A stretch of 37,808 nt of DNA from NCBI RefSeq assembly GCF_004010195.1, contig NC_057758.1, positions 986,562 to 1,024,369 on the forward strand. Reading direction: 5' to 3'. Of this stretch, positions 3,279 through 37,808 are shown piece after piece. The notes under the pieces were generated by a model that was given only the letters and a program-made list of their open reading frames with translations, was not told the DNA's origin and ran no database searches. A program made the translations under genes and the position numbers. Every line of letters begins with the position of its first letter. Position 1 is the first letter of the stretch. This DNA comes from Chiloscyllium plagiosum (Eukaryota).

Positions 3279-3442
3279 ATTGTGAAGGAATTCATTGGAG
3301 AATGCATTAACCTCTGTTTTTTTCAAAATTTGTGAAAGTCTTTCTGAGATTCAATTCTACGTATATCTCCATCCTCATTTATATTCATTTATATTATATG
3401 CATCTAATTTGTTTTTTTTTTACTAAATTCGACTACCCAGGC

Positions 3443-5602
3443 ATAGAACATAGAACATAGAACAGCGCAGTAAAGGCACTTCGGCCCTTGATGTGGCGAC
3501 GTCCTGTGAAACGACTCTGAAGTCCATCTAAACTACAGTAGCCAGTTCTCGCCTTATGTCTATCGAATGTCACTTTAAATGCCATTAAAGTTAAAGACTC
3601 CTCTGGTGCGTTACACGCCCCTATTCCACTCTGAGTAAAGAACCCACCTCTGACATCAGTCCGATATATTTCACCCTTCAATTTGAAGCTCTGCATCCAC
3701 GTGCTCAACATCACTATGCGAGAAAAAGGCTCTCACTATCGACCCGACCCAAATGCTCTTCTGGTGCGTTCAAGTAAGGCACCATTCAACCTTCTTCTCT
3801 CTGATGAAGACTGCCTCTCGATCCTCAGCCGTCCCTCGTGAGACGTTGCCTGCATACCAGGCAACATCCTCGTCAGTCCTCTCTGCACCCTTTCCAAACC
3901 TTCCATTTTCTTCTTATAATGCAATGACAAGAAACATGCACGATTCTTCAAGTGCGGTCACACCAGAATTTTTTAGAGCTGCAGCATGACCTCGTTGATC
4001 CGAAACTCAATTGCTTTCCCAATAAAAGCTATCACGCCGTGTTTCTTCTAAACAATTTTACAAGCCTGTGTGGCAACTTTTCGGGATCGATGAACATTGA
4101 CGCCGAGATCTCTCTGTTCATCTACTTACCAAGAAACTTACCATTAACGTAAAAGTTTATATTCCTGTTACGCCTTCCAGAGTCATTCACTTCACACTTT
4201 TCCGCAGCAAAAACCATTTTCCAAGTCTCAGCCAAGCTCTTCACCTTATATATCTCCCTCTGTCACCTACAACATCCTTCAGCACTATTCACAACTCTGC
4301 CGAATTTAGTGTCATTCGCAAGTTTACTAACCCACCCTTCCAGTATATCATCCAGTTCATTTCTGAAAATGACAAACAGCTATGACACCAAAAAAGATCC
4401 TTGCAGTAACCCCTTAGTAACTGAACTCCAGGATGAACAATTCCCATCAACTACCGATCTCTATCATCTTTCAGCCAGTCAACTGCTTATCCCAATCGCT
4501 AAATATCCCTCAATACCATGCCTTCTTATTTTGTGCAAGTTTACCGTGTTGTCTGTACCTAATCAACTTACTACTTCCCACATGGTTTTTAACCTTTTAT
4601 CGTATAATGTTATGCACCACTTTGCCCACAACACGGGTTAGACTCACTGGTCAACAGTTACCAGGGTTATATCTACTCAATTTCTTGAATACGGGAATAT
4701 CATTTGGTATCCTCCGGTCTTCTGGCACTATTCTTGTAGACAATGGCGATATAAAGATCAAAGGCAAAGACTCTGCAATATCCTCTGTGGCTTCCCAGAG
4801 AATCCTGGCATAAATACCATCTGGCCGAGGGGACTTAACTGTTTTCACATTTTCCATATTTGCTCTAACTCGTCCTTGTGAACATCAATCCCATCAAGTC
4901 TAGTAGCCTGTACCTCAGTATTGTACTCGACAACATTGACTTTTTCCAGTGTGAATGCTGACGAAATATATTCATTTAGCGCTTCCCCTTTATCCTCCGA
5001 CTCTACGCACAAATTCCCACCAGTATTCTTGATTGGCCCTAATCTTACGCTTGTCATTCTTTCATTACTGATGTACCTGGGTTTTCCTTGATCCTACCCA
5101 CCCATGAATTGCCATGCCTCTCCTGGCTCTTATTAGCTCTCTCTTTTGGTCTTTCATAGCTAGCCTGTCACGTCTCATCCTAACATAAACATTGTTCTTC
5201 CTCTTGAAAAGTTATTCCACTTCTTTAAAAAGAAAACACAGTTCCTTCGACCGATAACTTTCTCCCTTCCTGTCCTTCCGCTGTGACACTTGCCGTGCAG
5301 AATGAACCTGTCTCTTTCCATCACCAAAGTAAACATAACAGAATTGTAGTGACTATCACCAACGTGCTCACCGACCTCCAAGTCTAATCATTGGCCAGGT
5401 TCATGACTCAGCACCAATCCGATGTGGCCTCGCCCTTGTTGGCCTGTCCACATACTGTGTCAGGAAACCGTCCTGCACATAGTAGACAAAAACGGACCTT
5501 TCCAAATTCCTTGAACTATATATTCCTAGTCAATGTTTGTAAGTCTGAGGACCCCATAGCAACTACCCTGTCACTCTCGCTCCTATCGGGAATCATCTTC
5601 GG
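3443..5602 (-). mobile_element. Degenerate CR1/HER1 LINE (ORF2 with internal deletions)
   Basis: (ATAGAAC)n tail at 3443-3463. Minus-strand ORF fragments KSPRPDGIYARILWEA, LERVQRGLTRMLPGM and YRTDVRGGFFTQ. Endonuclease remnant GEHVGDSHYNSV. Confidence 0.92.
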
Positions 5603-8870: not shown

Positions 8871-9847
8871 AATATTAATATTTGAATGAGAGCTAGGCTT
8901 CCGTCATTCTTTTAAGAAATATTGATGACATTATTTATTCGGGAATGAAGCTAATTGCTTTATTAGAGTGGACTACATTGTTTGAATATCGGTTCTGTTG
9001 AATTTGTCATGTTAATTAATCACATGTATGCAATCAGATACCTCATGCAGCTAAGAAGTATCAAAAACTTCACAGGAAAAAATGTTGTTTCTACTCTGTG
9101 CTTGCAGGAATAGATATGGCAATGGCGAAATTACATACTAGAAAAAAATTGCTACTTTTGGAACCTCCAACGTATTATCAACTACACGCATTTTATTTTA
9201 GTGATATGATGCAAGTGTGCGGTTTTGCAGTATTCTTTAATAGAATTACAATGTTTGCTCGTTGAGATTATTGTATTAATCCATTTAGTTGATTTTTTTG
9301 TTTTCTTCTCCATTAATATAAATATTACAATCCACAGGGTAGGCATCAATTGTATTCTTTCACTACATTGACAATCTTGGATTCACATCTAATCTGATTC
9401 TGTTTAATGCCTAAACCAGCAGATATATCGCCATGACAAATAAAAACTCGCAAGAGACTCTGGGCTTCCAGCAGTGGAGACAGCTCTAGGCACTAAGTGA
9501 ATGAGAGTCGAAGGAAATCAATCATCTTACTTCCAGTTGTCAGGGGGAGTTTTGTTGTGTTATGATTCGTGGTTATGATGTATTCTGTGTTGAACGGAAT
9601 GTATGTCATTGAGTATGAATCTGCAGATTTAGATAATTATCTACTCGAATTAGGTTTTATGCTTGAACCCTAAGTTGATGCACAAATAATGTTGTATATG
9701 TTGTGACCAAGATTATCTCAGAGAGCAGTTGAAGGATGCGTAGTAATAAAGCCCTTTATATCAATTTCTAAATTAATAAACTTTTCAAAAGAGGAGTCAG
9801 AAGTACAAGTCGATCAAGTGATATGTTTTCTCCACAATTAACTCTCC

Positions 9848-10347: not shown

Positions 10348-12058
10348 GAGGCATGGCAATTCGTGGGTGGATCGGATCAAGGAAAACCCAGGTATATCAG
10401 TAATGAAAGAATGACGAGCATAAGATTAGGGCCAATCAAGAATACTGGTGGGAATTTGTGCGTAGAGTCGGAGGATAAAGGGGAAGCGCTAAATGAATAT
10501 ATTTCATCAGTATTCACACTGGAAAAAGTCAATGTTGTCGAGTACAATACTGAGGTACAGGCTACTAGACTGATGGGATTGATGTTCACAAGGAGGACGT
10601 TAGAGCAAATATGGAAAATGTGAAAATAGGCCAGATCGTATTTATGCCAGGATTCTCTGGGAAACCACAGAGGATATTGCAGAGTCTTTGCCTTTGATCT
10701 TTATATCGTCATTGTCTACAAGAATAGTGCCAGAAGACCGGAGGATAGCAAATGATATTCCCGTATTCAAGAAGTTGAGTAGACATAACCCTGGTAACTA
10801 TTGACCAGTGAGTCTAACCCCTGTTGTGGGCAAAGTGGTGCATAACATTATACGATAAAAGGTTAAAAACCATGTGGGAAGTAGTAAGTTGATTAGGTAT
10901 AGACAACATGGTAAACTTTCACAAAATAAGAAGGCACGGTATTGAGGGATATTTAGCGATTGGGATAAGCAATTTACTGGCTGAAAGATGATAGAGATCG
11001 GTAGTTGATGGGAATTGTTCATCCTGGAGTTCAGTTACTAAGGGGTTACTGCAAGGATCTTTTTTGGTGTCATAGCTGTTTGTCATTTTCAGAAATGAAC
11101 TGGATGATTTACTGGAAGGGTGGGTTAGTAAACTTGCGAATGACACTAAAGTCGGCAGAGTTGTGAATAGTGCTGAAGGATGTTGTAGGTGACAGAGGGA
11201 GATATATAAGGTGAAGAGCTTGGCTGAGACTTAGAAAATGGTGTTTGTTGCGGAAAACTGTGAAGTGAATGACTCTGGAAGGCGTAACAGGAATATAAAC
11301 TTTTGCGTTAAAGGTAAGTTTCTTGGTAGGTAGATGAACAGAGAGATCGCGGCGTCAATGTTCATCGATCCCGAAAAGTTGCCACACAGGCTTGTAAAAT
11401 TGTTCAGAAGAAACACGGCGTGATAGCTTTTATTGGTAAAGCAATTGAGTTTCGGATCAACGAGGTCATGCTGCAGCTCTAAAAAATTCTGGCGTGACCG
11501 CACTTGAAGAATCGTGCATGTTTCTTGTCACTGCATTATAAGAAGAATATGTAAGGTTTGGAAACGGTGCAGAGAGGACTAACGAGAATGTTGCCTGGTA
11601 TGCAGGGAAGGTCTCACGAGGGAAGGCTGAGGGTTACGAGGCAGTCTTCATCAGAGAGAAGAAGGTTGAAAGGTGCCTTACTTGAACGCACCAGAAGAGG
11701 CTTTGGGTCGGGTGGATAGTGAGAGCCTTTTTCTCGCATAGTGATGTTGAGCACATGGATGCAGAGCTTCAAATTGAAGGGTGAAAGATATCGGACTGAT
11801 GTCAGAGGTGGGTTCTTTACTCAGAGTGGAATAGGGGCGTGTAACGCACCAGAGGAGTCGTTAACTTTAATGGCATTTAAATTGACATTCGATAGACATA
11901 TGGCGAGAACTGACTACTGTAGTTTAGATGGACTTCAGAGTCGTTTCACAGGACGTCGCCACATCAAGGGCCGAAGTGCCTTTACTGCGCTGTTCTATGT
12001 TCTATGTTCTATGCCAGGGTAGGCGAATTTAGTAAAAAAAAAAAAATTAGATGCATAT
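10348..12058 (+). repeat. Inverted duplicate of 3396-5120 (decayed CR1 plus ~45 bp of 3' flank)
   Basis: Reverse-complement match. The decayed ORF translations are nearly identical (11741..12022 vs 3433..3714 differ at 4 of 93 aa). The copies share internal deletions and the flank gaatttagta(a)n-ttagatgcatat. Confidence 0.95.
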
Positions 12059-16904: not shown

Positions 16905-16912
16905 CATAAATA
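16905..16912 (+). promoter_or_regulatory. Candidate TATA-like box for the GPCR gene
   Basis: cataaata about 65 nt upstream of the ATG at 16973. Position-based only. Confidence 0.3.
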
Positions 16913-16972: not shown

Positions 16973-18760
16973 ATGATGAAGCCTGCAATTCTGCTGGTGA
17001 AAGAAATTTACGACACTATACTTGCACTTGTTGCTCTTCCTGGTGAGTCGCTTCATTTCTAAAGCCATTTTTATCAATAAGCTTGTTCAGAAATATTTTA
17101 CAAACGTCTGGAACAGTTGGATTCGCTTCAGGGTTTCTCGGTTCAGGGACAATGGGACTACCCTTTTTCCACAAGATCGCTCAGTGAGCCATGATAATAT
17201 GTTTGTGTTTAGCCCTATCCAAGTTTTGATTTGTTACCTGCACATTCAGTCAAGTAACCGATATCTTCCGTGTCAACGTTTCATAACAACTAATTTTGAG
17301 AGCTAATCGATCAACGGTGGCTCAGTGGTTCGCGCTGCGACCTCACAGTGCCAGGAACAGTGTTTTCAAAACTACCTCGGACGACTGTCTATGTCGCCTA
17401 TGTACGTTGTCCCTGTGCCTGTGTAAGTCTCCTCCGAATTTCCGATTTTCACTCGCTGGCAAAGTTAAGCAGGGTGGATGAATTGGTCATTTTCAATTGC
17501 CATTGTGTCCAGGGATGTGCAGGCCTTGTGCGTCAGCCGTCCAATATGGAGGGTTACTGTGCGGTGCAGGATGGTCTTCTGAACTTTGATGTGGACGTTT
17601 TGGATGAAACAGCCTGCTTTCACACTGGAGTGGTTCTACCATTGTATGAACCTTGCGTTCTCATCTCTGCTTTAATTAATATCCAATGCTGGTGTGATAA
17701 TAATGTTATTTCATGTACTAATTATTTTTCTTGCACTGTTAAGGAATTTTAACAAATGACATGCATGATCAGGCTCTGTCATGAATATTATCATGAATCA
17801 CTATTTGGTTTATCACTCACTGCTGTTTCTCTCCATCATAGCGAACTTGGCCACAATTTGGATTATTTCACTGAGAAAATGCGGCCTTACCAAATGTGTC
17901 ACGTTTTACATGTTGGCCATGGCAGCACAGATGTACTGGTCATCAACAATTCATCTACTGCATCTTCAGTTATCACTTTCCTTGGTAAGTCTTGTCCATC
18001 ACGCCTCTCTGCAGAGTCATTATATACATGACTGCTGTTACTTCTGAGTTGTCTGTCTGGTGCGTTGTCTCCTTCACATTTGACTGATTTATACTAATTT
18101 GCTGCCAGAAGTTTCAAACAAAATACTGCACCCAAAGTACTGCAAACATTCTTGTAATAACCATCACAGTTGTAATCGTATTGAAAGGTATGCCAGTTTT
18201 GTTTGCTTATGAACCCGAACAAATTAGTAACAAAGTGCAGTGGGGCTGCCGGTCAAGCAAAGCATTTTTTTTCATCTTCAGCAGCAATAGTATTTGTCTG
18301 GTTTTATAGCGCCTGTATCGTTTGGATTCCCTTTTCTCTGATTGTCTTGAGTAATTCATCTGCAGCGTAATTCATTAATTGTCAAACGTATTGTACGAGC
18401 GAATAGAAACCCCACTGCACTGCGGAGCTCCAGGAGTGGGAATGAAAGTGACTCAGCAATGGAGAACCGCAGGATGTCCAGAATTTTATTATTCTGCATA
18501 ACGGTAAGTTTCCTCTTGCTCTGGTTGCCAATTTCCGTGACTTTAGGCATTACCAGACTAACAGGCACCATTTATTACCGAGGAAAGTTCAGAGACCCTG
18601 AATTTATCGCCAAGAAAACTGCAGATATCTTGATATATTTTAATTGTTTTCTAAACCCCTGTATTTATGTCACGACCCAAAGCAAGATCAGAGGAGAGAT
18701 GAAAAAATGTCAACATTTCCATGGATTTTAATTTGGAGACACTTCGATCGAAATATGTAA
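16973..18760 (+). pseudogene. GPR139/GPR142-like class A GPCR pseudogene, two exons (16973-17042; 17842-~18760)
   Basis: Exon 1 MMKPAILLVKEIYDTILALVALP with donor G|GTGAGT; acceptor ctccatcatag| at 17841 (phase 1). Exon 2 reads ANLATIWIISLRKCGLTKCVTFYMLAMA..TPLC..SVWCVVSFTFD*FILICCQKFQTKYCT..WGCR..MENRRMSRILLF..SFLLLWLP..NCFLNPCIYVTTQSKIR. Stops at 17986-17988 and 18085-18087; frameshifts near 17925-17962, 18265-18272, 18351-18375 and probably ~18705. Confidence 0.92.
17312..17648 (+). mobile_element. Old HE1-like SINE in the GPCR intron
   Basis: acggtggctcagtggtt..cctcacagtgccagg head, degenerate V-domain and cctgctttcacactg tail. Confidence 0.8.
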
Positions 18761-33556: not shown

Positions 33557-35505
33557 TCAAAGAGGAGATATGTACTTGTGAAGGACGATTGACATAGAAA
33601 TTATGAGTAACTGGAATTCACGTTCAGATAAGAAGAGTTCAATTATTCGCAGTGCTGTTAGAGTATCGAGTGAAGAGTACATAAGTGATGCCACGAGTAC
33701 TGGACAAACTCTCAACTCAGGAATACAATTTGTCTTTGACAACGATATAGCTGATTCACAGGTAAGATTGCTGCCTATTGCGGTTGAAAAGCCAATTGAA
33801 AGTCTGGCAACTGGGGCATTAAAGGAATCCTTTACTGGGATTTTTCCTGACTGTGTAACAACGAGGTCACAAATTTAACAGTTGAAACAGGAAAAAACAA
33901 AGAGTAAAGACAGGAAATTTGAAGTGAAATTATAATAGATCCTGCTGAACCAGGTGGCTGAGACAAAAGAGGAGATTGACAACGTAGATATCTTTAGTTC
34001 AGAGAGATTAACTGACTTACAACAGAAAGATGAAAATGTGTAGGAATTACATCAAACGTTATATATAGAAAAAAAACACTGAATGCATCTCTGAGTGCTA
34101 CTACGCTAAAAGTCGGTGTGGTATCTTCAGCCATCATCTAATTAGGTCTAGGTGTAGTTCAGAGGTTCCTCATGTCGTACTGCCAGTGGGCGATAGAAAG
34201 AAGAGCTTGGGGGTTGCACTTGAACTCCCACTGGAGATCACTTCAGTGTTAAAAAAAATGTCAAGCTGAGAAACGAAAACATTTTAAATGCTGAGATTGC
34301 ACAAGAATGTCGGTGAATTTTGCCAGACAGGACATACATGTCAGGCATTGGAAACGCAACGACAGAAATCAAAGCCACACCATTCATACGTATTCCTGCA
34401 TTTGGCCAACATTTGTCGAGAGTCTTAATTGATTGTGCAAGATTTCTACATTAAATGAAGAGTGGGAATCAGCAGTTGTTAACACTAATGGATGCGTCCA
34501 CTGGATTTCAGTATGCAATATCACAGTCCAATGGATTATAGAGGAGATACTCAAACGTTTTACCAGTTATGGAGTACCCACGGGTAAATAACAACAACGG
34601 GTAAATTTCACATTAACGTTTTTGAAGTAAGTTCTGGACAGCCGAGGAATAAAACAATTCAAATCTACTGCATACCATCCAGAACCGCTGGAAGCAGTAG
34701 GAAATTTGCATCAAACATTAAAGACCAGGTTGAGGCCTTACAGTCAATTCGATTCAGACGATTGGAATTAAATAATTCCGTTTTTTACTTTTGCCAGCAG
34801 TGATGCTGCAAGAAATTGTTATTGCTGCTTCAAGTGGTATGTGAATCTTTATAAAGAAGGCTTAGTGGACGATTTTAAGTGGAAAGGAGATTAATGAGTT
34901 GAAGTGTTTGGTAAGGACTTCAGACAGATGGAAATTGTGCATTGTGTCATGCGAATATGCTCAGATAGCATTATGGCAGGGAAGGAAAGCAAAGGGAGTT
35001 CATGCTTCTTGTTAAAATACTGAGTGAAAAACAAAGTTCAGAGGATTTTCAATTGGGCATTCCTCGACTTAAATTGGACAATGAGGACGTTGTCATGTGA
35101 TGTGTTAATTTTCAGAGGAAAATCGACTGAACGAGGTTTTGTTATTGCGGGAAGGGGGCGGGGGGCGTGAGAGGTGTATGTGCACATAATCTGGGATGTA
35201 ATAAACTAATTCTCCACGATTTAGAGAAAGGAAATGCTGATCCTATTAAGCAACGTCTTTAGCGAATTAATCCTCTAAATTTGGTGGTGTTTCAAAAGGA
35301 GAATGAACGCATGCTGCAAGATAACGAATCAATGTGAATTGCAGTGGCTGGAATTCAGCATTAATAATGGTGCCAACATCAGATGGTAACCAACGGTCAT
35401 GTGTGAACTGTCACAAAGTCAGTTACAGAGTCCCATTCGGTTGATGCTATTACAAAGGATGATTTGGATGCGATTCCAAGTTTAAAAGACATTATTGAAT
35501 AGGTT

Positions 35506-35950
35506 TGTCGTGGAAATTAAATTGACTCGACTCAACTATTAGCAAGATCCACCAAACGAGCTTTATTAATTGTAACCTCTGCATTGCAGAGGGGCCACAC
35601 GCACTTGACAAAAATGCGTTGTGCAAGGGCCCCGAGTATCATTCATATGTTTCCTTGATACCTTACTTCGCTCAGCCTTATCTCACCTCAATGACAATCA
35701 GCTTGGGAACAGCTCGAGCCCTTTTCCACAGAAGGAGTTGTTTTCCCATTCCTTCACTGTTGAAAAAAACTGCTCCTGCTCTTGTGTTTTCCCCTGACTC
35801 TGCCGAATTAGATTGTTTGCAAAACTTGCAAGGCCAGGCGGTCTGTTCATAGAATTCAGTGAAGTCAGGCTGTCTGCATCAAATTGACTTAGGAAGATAT
35901 TATTTAACAGATTTAAGAGTAAATATTAATTTTGTTCATTTTCCATTACA
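35506..35950 (-). mobile_element. ERV 3' LTR, 445 bp, complete
   Basis: Terminal inverted repeats TGTAATGGAAA / TTTCCACGACA on the minus strand. AATAAA at 35562-35567 (minus). Directly preceded by a polypurine tract; second copy at 1-176. Confidence 0.9.
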
Positions 35951-35962
35951 TTTCCCCGTTTT
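35951..35962 (-). promoter_or_regulatory. Retroviral polypurine tract
   Basis: Minus strand AAAACGGGGAAA abuts the LTR TG. Confidence 0.8.
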
Positions 35963-36029
35963 GTCATTTTATGACGACAGGGACAACAACCAAAAAAAGC
36001 CAGATTTTGTAAAAATACGGAGCCAAATA

Positions 36030-36730
36030 AATAAAACTCAGCGATCAAGACAGCTGTCTTCGTTGAAAGGAGCATTTTATGCGGTCGCAGCCAACTCTTT
36101 GCTTTCCAATTTTTCCTCCTGAAGTCTTTCACCATGATACAGACTTCAGGTTTTAGATCGTGCAGCTTCCCTTCTGCTGGTTGGGGTCGTGCTGCTTTCA
36201 CTTGATTCTGTATTTCAGACAAAAGTGCAGAGAGTTTCAAAAAGTAACGCAACATCTCATCCTCACAATGGCCTGTTATCTGTTTTACCTTAGGATTCGG
36301 GCCAATTCCTGTGTTGGGCGGCCTACCAAACAAAATCTCAAACAAGCTGAGATTAACTCTTCCTAGAGCTCATATACATTAGCACAATTGGAAGTGCTTT
36401 TGTCCATGCCACCCCGAGTTCCTCACATTTTGTCAATTTATATTTAAAGGTAGCATTTTCCCTTTCCACTGCCCCACCACTCGCTGGGTGGTAGGCACAG
36501 TGCTGTATCATGTTTATTCCCAAATAATCACGGATCTGTTATCAGGCATTACTGGCAAATGGTGTCCCATTGTCACTACTAAGCCTTTCAGGGATGATCC
36601 TGTATTTACCAAAAAAGGTAACTGAGGTATCTTCCACATATCAGATAGAGGTAGGCATTGACTTATACGCATCATTATTGTCCTGAATATATGGTACACA
36701 CTCTGCAATCTCAGCGCTCAATATGGGGGT
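36030..36730 (-). pseudogene. pol: Class I (epsilon/gamma-like) ERV integrase remnant
   Basis: IPERLSSDNGTPF, HCAYHPASGGAVERENATFKYKL, WTKALPIVLMYM, FEILFGRPP and C-terminal VKDFRRKNWKAKSW..LLSTKTAV. Confidence 0.9.
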
Positions 36731-36859
36731 GGGACATGTTTCAGTGCCCGTAACGTGAGTAGAAGAGATTAGCATAAGCGAGTCTTCGTTGCCAAGCATA
36801 AAGTAAAGAGGCGTACCTGTACCTCATGAGCTGCCCAACTCCACCTCAGCCTTCCCCTG

Positions 36860-37808
36860 TCAGTCACACTGCTCTCCAGCCTTCTGGACAAATTGACGCT
36901 ATCTGTGTTGGCACTGTCTCGCCCAACGGTCCATTGCTCCCCAAACAAAGTACACATATGCCAGCGCATCTACATATGCCAGATCTACATATGCCAGATC
37001 TACATATGCCAGCGCATCTTCCTCTCTCTTTTTCGCAACACCTGCCTCCTACGGCTGGGCCACCATCTGCATCAGAATTAGCTGCGCTTATGTGCTTGCT
37101 GTTCCATCTTTCATTTCCTCTTATCCTTCTCTTGGGTTAGCATTTTTTCTGCATGTATCACATGTTGTTCTATGAAATTCTGCTTTTCCATGGCCCAGGT
37201 AATACATCTTCTTCCCTATTTCGGCCTTCATTCCACTGATCCTCAGATGTGCTTCAACTGGTGTGATTTTTGCCGCCGTTATGTCGTCGGGTGAGAAGCG
37301 TAAGGTACTGGGACACTGTCTCAAGTTCCCGTTGTTTACAAATTGCAATTTTGGTCATGTCCATTCGCACTGGGAATGCCTCCCAGGCGGTCGCCAGCGC
37401 AGCAATAAAAGCATTAAAGTCTCTGTTCTGCTCCACTTGCGGGTTGCCTACTGTGGTATGGATGTTTGCGGTTGGCCAGTTATACTTCTCCTGGGCTTCT
37501 TGGTCCAATATGTTTCGGGTACGAGATGCTACCAGTGATTCAGTGGACCCTGAAGTGGCGGCCGCTGACGTGGTACCTTCGTCAGCTGGATCTCGGAGGG
37601 GGGCTGTAGGTCTCGGAGGGCAGTCATCAAGATCAGGATCTGAAACAGAATTAAGATACTGTACAACTTTGTTTGGTTGTTTTCCGCGCAAGTCTGCATG
37701 TGCGCTGGTGTGTGTCCATGTATTTGATCTACCCTTTACTTGAGATTTCCTTTCCCTGATATCAGCCTAAGCCTTCCACATGTTATAAGCACTCCAATTC
37801 ACAGGTTC
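36860..37808 (-). pseudogene. gag: ERV gag remnant (capsid C-terminal/MHR region), runs off the window end
   Basis: EAFPVRMDMTKIAICKQRELETVSQYL resembles the major homology region (Q...E....Y). It is followed by a frameshifted ..SGMKAEI.. segment and lies upstream of IN on the same strand. Confidence 0.75.
36954..37019 (+). repeat. Tandem repeat of 18/15/15/18-bp units
   Basis: acatatgccagcgcatct, acatatgccagatct x2, acatatgccagcgcatct. Confidence 0.95.

Follow-up and report, generated by a model that had tools for sequence, protein, structure and literature searches.

The window, a stretch of 37,808 nucleotides from Chiloscyllium plagiosum, carries on its plus strand (positions 16973 to 18760) a two-exon pseudogene of a class A (rhodopsin-like) G protein-coupled receptor (GPCR). 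Exon 1 (16973 to 17042, plus strand) encodes a very short N terminus and the first part of transmembrane helix 1 (TM1), ends at a GTGAGT donor, and matches the N terminus of protein P0004 at 17 of 25 residues by tblastn. An intron of 799 nt (17043 to 17841, plus strand) with a pyrimidine tract and a TAG acceptor separates it from exon 2 (17842 to 18760, plus strand), which extends from the remainder of TM1 to helix 8 and closes with a TAA at 18758 to 18760. The intron is in phase 1 and cuts the Ala codon of LP|AN as G|CG; this reading of exons and splice sites upholds the short N terminus and the phase-1 LP|AN intron in TM1 of the preliminary description. A high-copy repeat fragment lies within the intron near 17300 to 17360, where contig depth is very high (17296 to 17361), and a TATA-like stretch is found at about 16905 to 16912 (plus strand), roughly 65 nt 5′ of the start codon. 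The Pfam model 7tm_1 matched the window piece 18351 to 18728 above its cut-off (E = 7.8e-08) and also matched the relative P0002; four other window pieces gave no match. In a frameshift-aware alignment, the pseudogene is identical to P0002 at 205 of 302 positions and to P0003 at 199 of 299. The NP.IY motif is present as described earlier, but it is generic to class A rather than of GPR139/142 type, human GPR139 being without that proline.

The gene is disabled, as had been claimed. Alignment to three intact relatives places five frameshifts in exon 2 (near 17926, 17949, 18265 to 18274, 18353, and 18706), and the frameshift-aware alignment locates two stops on the plus strand: an in-frame TAA in extracellular loop 1 (17986 to 17988) and a TGA (18085 to 18087) that replaces R3.50 of the DRF motif, a position held by arginine in each of the 184 family rows that are not gapped at this site. 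We checked these lesions against contigs of two public DNA-like runs, X1 and X2 (samples S1 and S2 of one study, same species), either of which could be the source of the assembly itself. X2 record 10 spans the TGA with no differences and no gaps, and X2 records 13 and 14 and X1 record 6 reproduce the three later frameshifts (near 18270, 18353, and 18706) gap-free. A single contig (X1 record 4) spans the TAA, with one unplaced mismatch, and no listed X1/X2 piece bridges the two 5′-most frameshifts, near 17926 and 17949. Of the high-depth paralog contigs, one is a base short at 18265 and a second carries an additional base at 18703, as expected if both breaks are specific to the window copy. 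The earlier wording "highly diverged" suits the family as a whole, which is far from GPR139, but not the copy itself, which is only modestly diverged within its subfamily; its end branch is 0.25 versus 0.05 to 0.17 for intact relatives.

The window holds another, older relic of this family at 9349 to 9784 on the plus strand, 7 kb upstream of the pseudogene and directly ahead of a 500-N gap. It is recognizable from TM5 to helix 8 only and has accumulated four frameshifts and four stops. Its HMM match (E = 1.8e-08) compares with 1.7 for the best reversed-window control, and its alignment to P0179 of Heterodontus scores 198 against a maximum of 51 among 20 shuffles, with 66 of 145 columns identical; it differs in subfamily from the copy at 16973 to 18760. 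The N-terminal half of the relic (score of 40; shuffle median of 37) did not rise above shuffles, and scanning the whole window with eight family members revealed no third copy. The presence of two dead genes of unlike subfamilies and decay states within 7 kb of each other directly documents clustering and turnover at this locus.

LINE, SINE, and LTR debris (types read by eye) makes up most of the remaining sequence, and Pfam named none of the 14 window open reading frames (ORFs). The "duplication unit" proposed earlier was not substantiated, as self-comparison returned only transposon copies and one 175-bp match of 88% (2 to 176 versus 35776 to 35950); this match sits at the window edge, and the homology may extend beyond it. 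A 26-bp satellite, looked for within the window, was absent upstream of the pseudogene. The segments 3396 to 5120 and 10348 to 12058 form a LINE-like inverted pair of 1.7 kb with 95.5% identity, one arm of which begins exactly where the N gap ends, a configuration that would be explained by two recent insertions or, alternatively, by an assembly artifact. On the minus strand, an ORF at 35929 to 36369 resembles the end of a retroviral integrase by eye (without a Pfam match) and is flanked by sequence that likewise looks retrovirus-like (about 36400 to 37800). Decayed fragments on the plus strand at about 400 to 600 and 34300 to 34800 were recognized by eye from remembered motifs, and we take them to be Gypsy-like reverse transcriptase and integrase.

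To place the pseudogene, we built trees from which true GPR139 and GPR142 were left out throughout. With IQ-TREE (50 rows), the window copy grouped with the Stegostoma and Rhincodon genes P0001 to P0003 at a support of 100/100 and was nested within a single clade of 35 elasmobranch rows (98/92), which was sister to an amphibian and sturgeon gene (99/99). A FastTree analysis of 196 rows agreed (a minimum coverage of 80% of the profile core left 200 of 275 rows, from which 4 redundant ones were then removed). In the tree, distant sharks and rays have subfamilies in common. The sister gene was represented by 20 amphibian clusters, each from another species, with 66 to 74% identity to P0207, and by a sturgeon gene with 46% identity; as the search was word-limited, these are the lineages found, and others may have been missed. 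These proteins (P0207 and P0276 to P0295) represent a conserved amphibian/sturgeon orphan receptor that is labeled "probable GPR139" but is not GPR139; it has one cluster per species, and its predicted polar pocket is near-invariant. This conserved gene offers the best starting point in a search for the ancestral ligand.

The window copy is almost certainly a pseudogene of this elasmobranch family and not an ortholog of GPR139. Among PDB sequences, P0010 matches human GPR139 best (E = 1.3e-10), at 44 bits versus 160 bits for a salamander protein and 151 bits for a coelacanth protein, and these two proteins themselves score only 53 and 70 bits against human GPR139. This receptor is also the best PDB match of the family profile (E = 6.2e-22, 81 bits), the next being at 2.2e-16 (63 bits). 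Judged by profile, GPR139 is thus the closest characterized receptor, and the family belongs to the GPR139/142-related superfamily; being the nearest solved receptor explains the RefSeq label. P0010 and human GPR139 share about 71 identities over about 300 columns, or about a quarter, versus 70% identity between the zebrafish and human orthologs according to the available text of PMC7318219. The same text gives the GPR139 pocket, defined by mutagenesis, as E108, F109, H187, W241, R244, and N271. None of 187 sequences keeps more than three of these six residues, and the window copy keeps the tryptophan alone; among 186 proteins, E108 is kept in 1, R244 in 4, N271 in 9, F109 in 24, and H187 in 86. 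We therefore rejected GPR139 orthology, given the identity of about a quarter, the lost pocket, and an amphibian/sturgeon gene as the nearest bony-vertebrate relative.

Compared directly, GPR139 (PDB 7vug and 9m42) resembles the family in its two exons, the TM1 junction, and the end of TM3; the two exons of the human gene are documented in the accessible part of PMC7318219. It differs in that the human chain shows no cysteine at C3.25 or in extracellular loop 2 (ECL2), both of which are present in the elasmobranch family, and in being one conserved gene, whereas the family is multicopy with pseudogenes. Comparing P0274 with P0215 reveals a coelacanth model with 24 inserted residues at the junction equivalent to LP|AN. 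Other nonmammalian relatives of GPR139/142 have been described as GPR210A/B in fish and coelacanth (Rinne et al. 2019, PMC6504862); in the text available from that paper, sharks are mentioned zero times and the sets include no amphibian member. Our coelacanth, teleost, sturgeon, and lamprey outgroups (P0215, P0221, P0253, P0268, and P0255) probably correspond to GPR210A/B, for which a supplement of that paper carries no identifiers that would allow matching to our proteins (PMC6504862). The amphioxus protein P0247 has three of the six human GPR139 pocket residues (W, R, and N), with conservative replacements by D and Y at two others, and none of the vertebrate outgroups examined comes as near to GPR139.

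Searching with P0002 yielded 309 proteins at E ≤ 0.001, and 119 of the best 120 came from 12 shark and ray species. Family copy numbers are lower bounds from protein clusters rather than genome counts: among the matches listed, Heterodontus, Heptranchias, and Pristiophorus have at least 26 clusters each. Also among the matches listed, the closest proteins are from Stegostoma (P0001 and P0002) and Rhincodon (P0003), and there is no chimaera member. An unindexed search gave 115 representatives (at 50% identity) at E ≤ 1e-30, and all 18 in-clade representatives that we looked up were elasmobranch. Sixteen of the 26 listed Heterodontus clusters lie on a contig or contigs of one size (74.9 Mb), as do all seven listed Scyliorhinus canicula clusters (226 Mb), and these common sizes point to arrays; one S. 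canicula cluster consists of four consecutive accessions. A clade of 17 rows from Heterodontus only, with a support of 100, represents a species-specific bloom. In the species of the window, collapsed paralog contigs have depths of 200 to 460, compared to 3 to 21 for locus-specific contigs, which hints at tens of near-identical copies, depth not being a copy number. In both DNA-like runs, contigs with a depth of 208 to 248 join 17002 to 17010 to 17839, with exon-1-like and exon-2-like parts, suggesting a multicopy subfamily with a much shorter intron. The earlier proposal of a birth-and-death shark receptor family is thus borne out by many clustered paralogs, pseudogenes, and the second relic, and extends to rays.

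The RefSeq name "probable GPR139" is an automatic label, and the first exon is wrong in many of the models, P0002 and P0003 among them. We found no description of the elasmobranch family in the literature searched, including part of the supplements. Marra 2019 reportedly noted an excess of GPR139 copies, with a few dozen genes labeled "probable GPR139" in the white and whale sharks; if so, the family would be less new. The supplement files covered from PMC8455134 (12 of 24) and PMC13188829 (8 files) contained no match to it. The family looks like an independent, undescribed instance of an expanded receptor repertoire that arose from the GPR139 branch.

To locate the variability among family members, we compared 26 predicted pocket sites (TM4 omitted), a list that we take to be a generic class A set, with the other 140 TM sites. 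Measured as site entropy, which ignores relatedness among sequences and is not dN/dS, variability in the amphibian orthologs was 0.05 in the pocket and 0.41 elsewhere in the TM region (ratio of 0.12), and in 186 shark proteins it was 2.54 and 1.39, respectively (ratio of 1.83). Within five single shark species, the ratio ranged from 1.54 to 2.20 (P ≤ 0.002), and in a catshark set at matched identity (0.84 versus 0.86; n = 7) it was 2.19. Of the amphibian-invariant sites, the ten that vary most in sharks include eight from the pocket. Against a stricter control, the nonpocket sites of the extracellular half, the pocket excess was significant in four of six shark sets and not significant in Heterodontus (P = 0.135) and Rhincodon (P = 0.069). 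Signaling motifs are kept in 178 to 184 of the 186 proteins, W6.48 in 179, and the mean TM identity of the shark proteins is 0.53. A predicted pocket that is nearly invariant in the amphibian gene but most variable in the shark paralogs is the pattern that characterizes a ligand-diversifying repertoire, and the hypervariability bears out the earlier expectation of a sensing repertoire.

The AlphaFold model of P0010 is a seven-TM fold (pLDDT of 86) with a two-stranded ECL2 and a TM-score of about 0.7 to class A structures; in a fold search with this model, GPR139 ranked sixth and was not singled out. The TM3-ECL2 cysteines are each conserved in at least 90% of the sequences. Together with the predicted ECL2 strands, the cysteine pair would weakly suggest peptide-like or other polar ligands rather than free aromatic amino acids.

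From these sequence patterns, the intact members probably constitute a ligand-diversified repertoire of sensors, of which the window copy would be a dead member. An orphan GPR139-related gene with a fixed ligand, present once per amphibian species, would have been amplified in elasmobranchs by repeated tandem duplication. The duplicates would have kept the signaling core (D2.50, C3.25, DR3.50, W6.48, N7.49, and Y7.53), while the pocket-lining residues may have been rewritten copy by copy such that different copies bind different molecules. Redundant copies would then decay, the window pseudogene being an example. As to where such receptors might act, external chemosensation in the nose, taste buds, or skin is a tentative candidate with somewhat less than an even chance, and internal sensing in the gut, immune cells, or sensory nerve endings appears somewhat less likely still. 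Two single-cell RNA runs of one sample, X5 (about 2% read) and X6 (about 6%), yielded no reads matching the exons at 82% likeness and are uninformative either way; X5 matched the intronic repeat only, and X6 matched nothing.

Some of this evidence could be read differently. The preliminary description had noted GPR139/142-type motifs and suggested a possible expansion of amino acid- or peptide-sensing receptors, and the family might accordingly be an expansion of GPR139/142-type aromatic amino acid receptors sensing Trp, Phe, and relatives as food cues. This reading draws on human GPR139 as the best PDB match of both P0010 and the family profile, on the tryptophan at 6.48 and the H187 position (kept in 179 and 86 of 186 proteins), and on the preference of the wider clade for aromatic ligands reported in the available text of PMC8557429. 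It is nonetheless improbable, as E108, R244, N271, and F109 are almost always or mostly replaced, no sequence retains more than half of the pocket, and the 44 bits of human GPR139 against 160 of the salamander protein are far from what the 70% identity of the zebrafish ortholog illustrates for true GPR139 (PMC7318219, available part); the earlier ligand idea is not supported, given the pocket and the different nearest relative. Another view is that the expansion is mostly nonadaptive, a short two-exon gene having been amplified in repeat-rich, recombination-prone regions with its copies drifting. Both window copies are indeed dead and lie amid LINE and LTR debris, and the paralog contig depths of 200 to 460 versus 3 to 21, although not copy numbers, suggest recent amplification. 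Drift, however, would move the ratio of pocket to other TM entropy toward 1 and not to 1.5 to 2.2, and it sits poorly with signaling motifs conserved despite a mean TM identity of 0.53 and with the subfamilies that distant sharks and rays have in common. We regard it as unlikely, if less so than the aromatic amino acid reading.

Clustering, pseudogenes, and pocket diversity are typical of MRGPR- and FPR-type families, and they fit equally well if the receptors were internal sentinels for microbial, parasite, or damage peptides, by analogy with MRGPRs or formyl peptide receptors, in immune cells, gut endocrine cells, or sensory nerve endings. Such a scenario falls within the repertoire explanation and departs from it in the tissue. 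According to the available part of PMC8455134, cartilaginous fishes lack MAS1-related receptors, which would leave the niche of these receptors open. Olfactory neurons of the catshark all carry microvillous markers with V2R-dominated expression, as given in the accessible text of PMC10116579, and in such a nose the need for a further receptor family is hardly apparent, so skin, taste, gut, or immune roles are candidates. Nothing in this analysis ties the family positively to immune tissue, and the sentinel version would be doubtful, though better placed than drift.

The ligand-diversified repertoire resembles the OR, TAAR, V1R, V2R, T2R, MRGPR, and FPR families in its clusters, pseudogenes, and compact genes as well as in combining a conserved core with a variable pocket. 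It differs from them in its separate origin from the GPR139/MIP-receptor branch (PMC8557429, available text), and it is absent from the chemoreceptor families surveyed in the catshark, as far as the accessible part of that survey extends (PMC6368271). The same survey counts 65 chemoreceptor genes in total in the catshark, and a "relative paucity" of GPCRs has been noted for cartilaginous fishes (PMC8455134, in the part available). As a pseudogene the window copy is unremarkable, and what makes it useful is that it leads to the family and to the amphibian sister gene found once per species. It is conceivable from the sequences, if short of an even bet, that sharks and rays possess an additional, so far unrecognized chemosensory family, independently recruited from the GPR139/MIP peptide-receptor branch, that outnumbers all canonical smell and taste families together, which, if true, would explain their chemical senses despite about 65 known receptors. 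Whatever the organ, be it nose, skin, gut, or immune system, a large, fast-turning, pocket-diversified family under a misleading "GPR139" label would change the picture of these animals as chemoreceptor poor.
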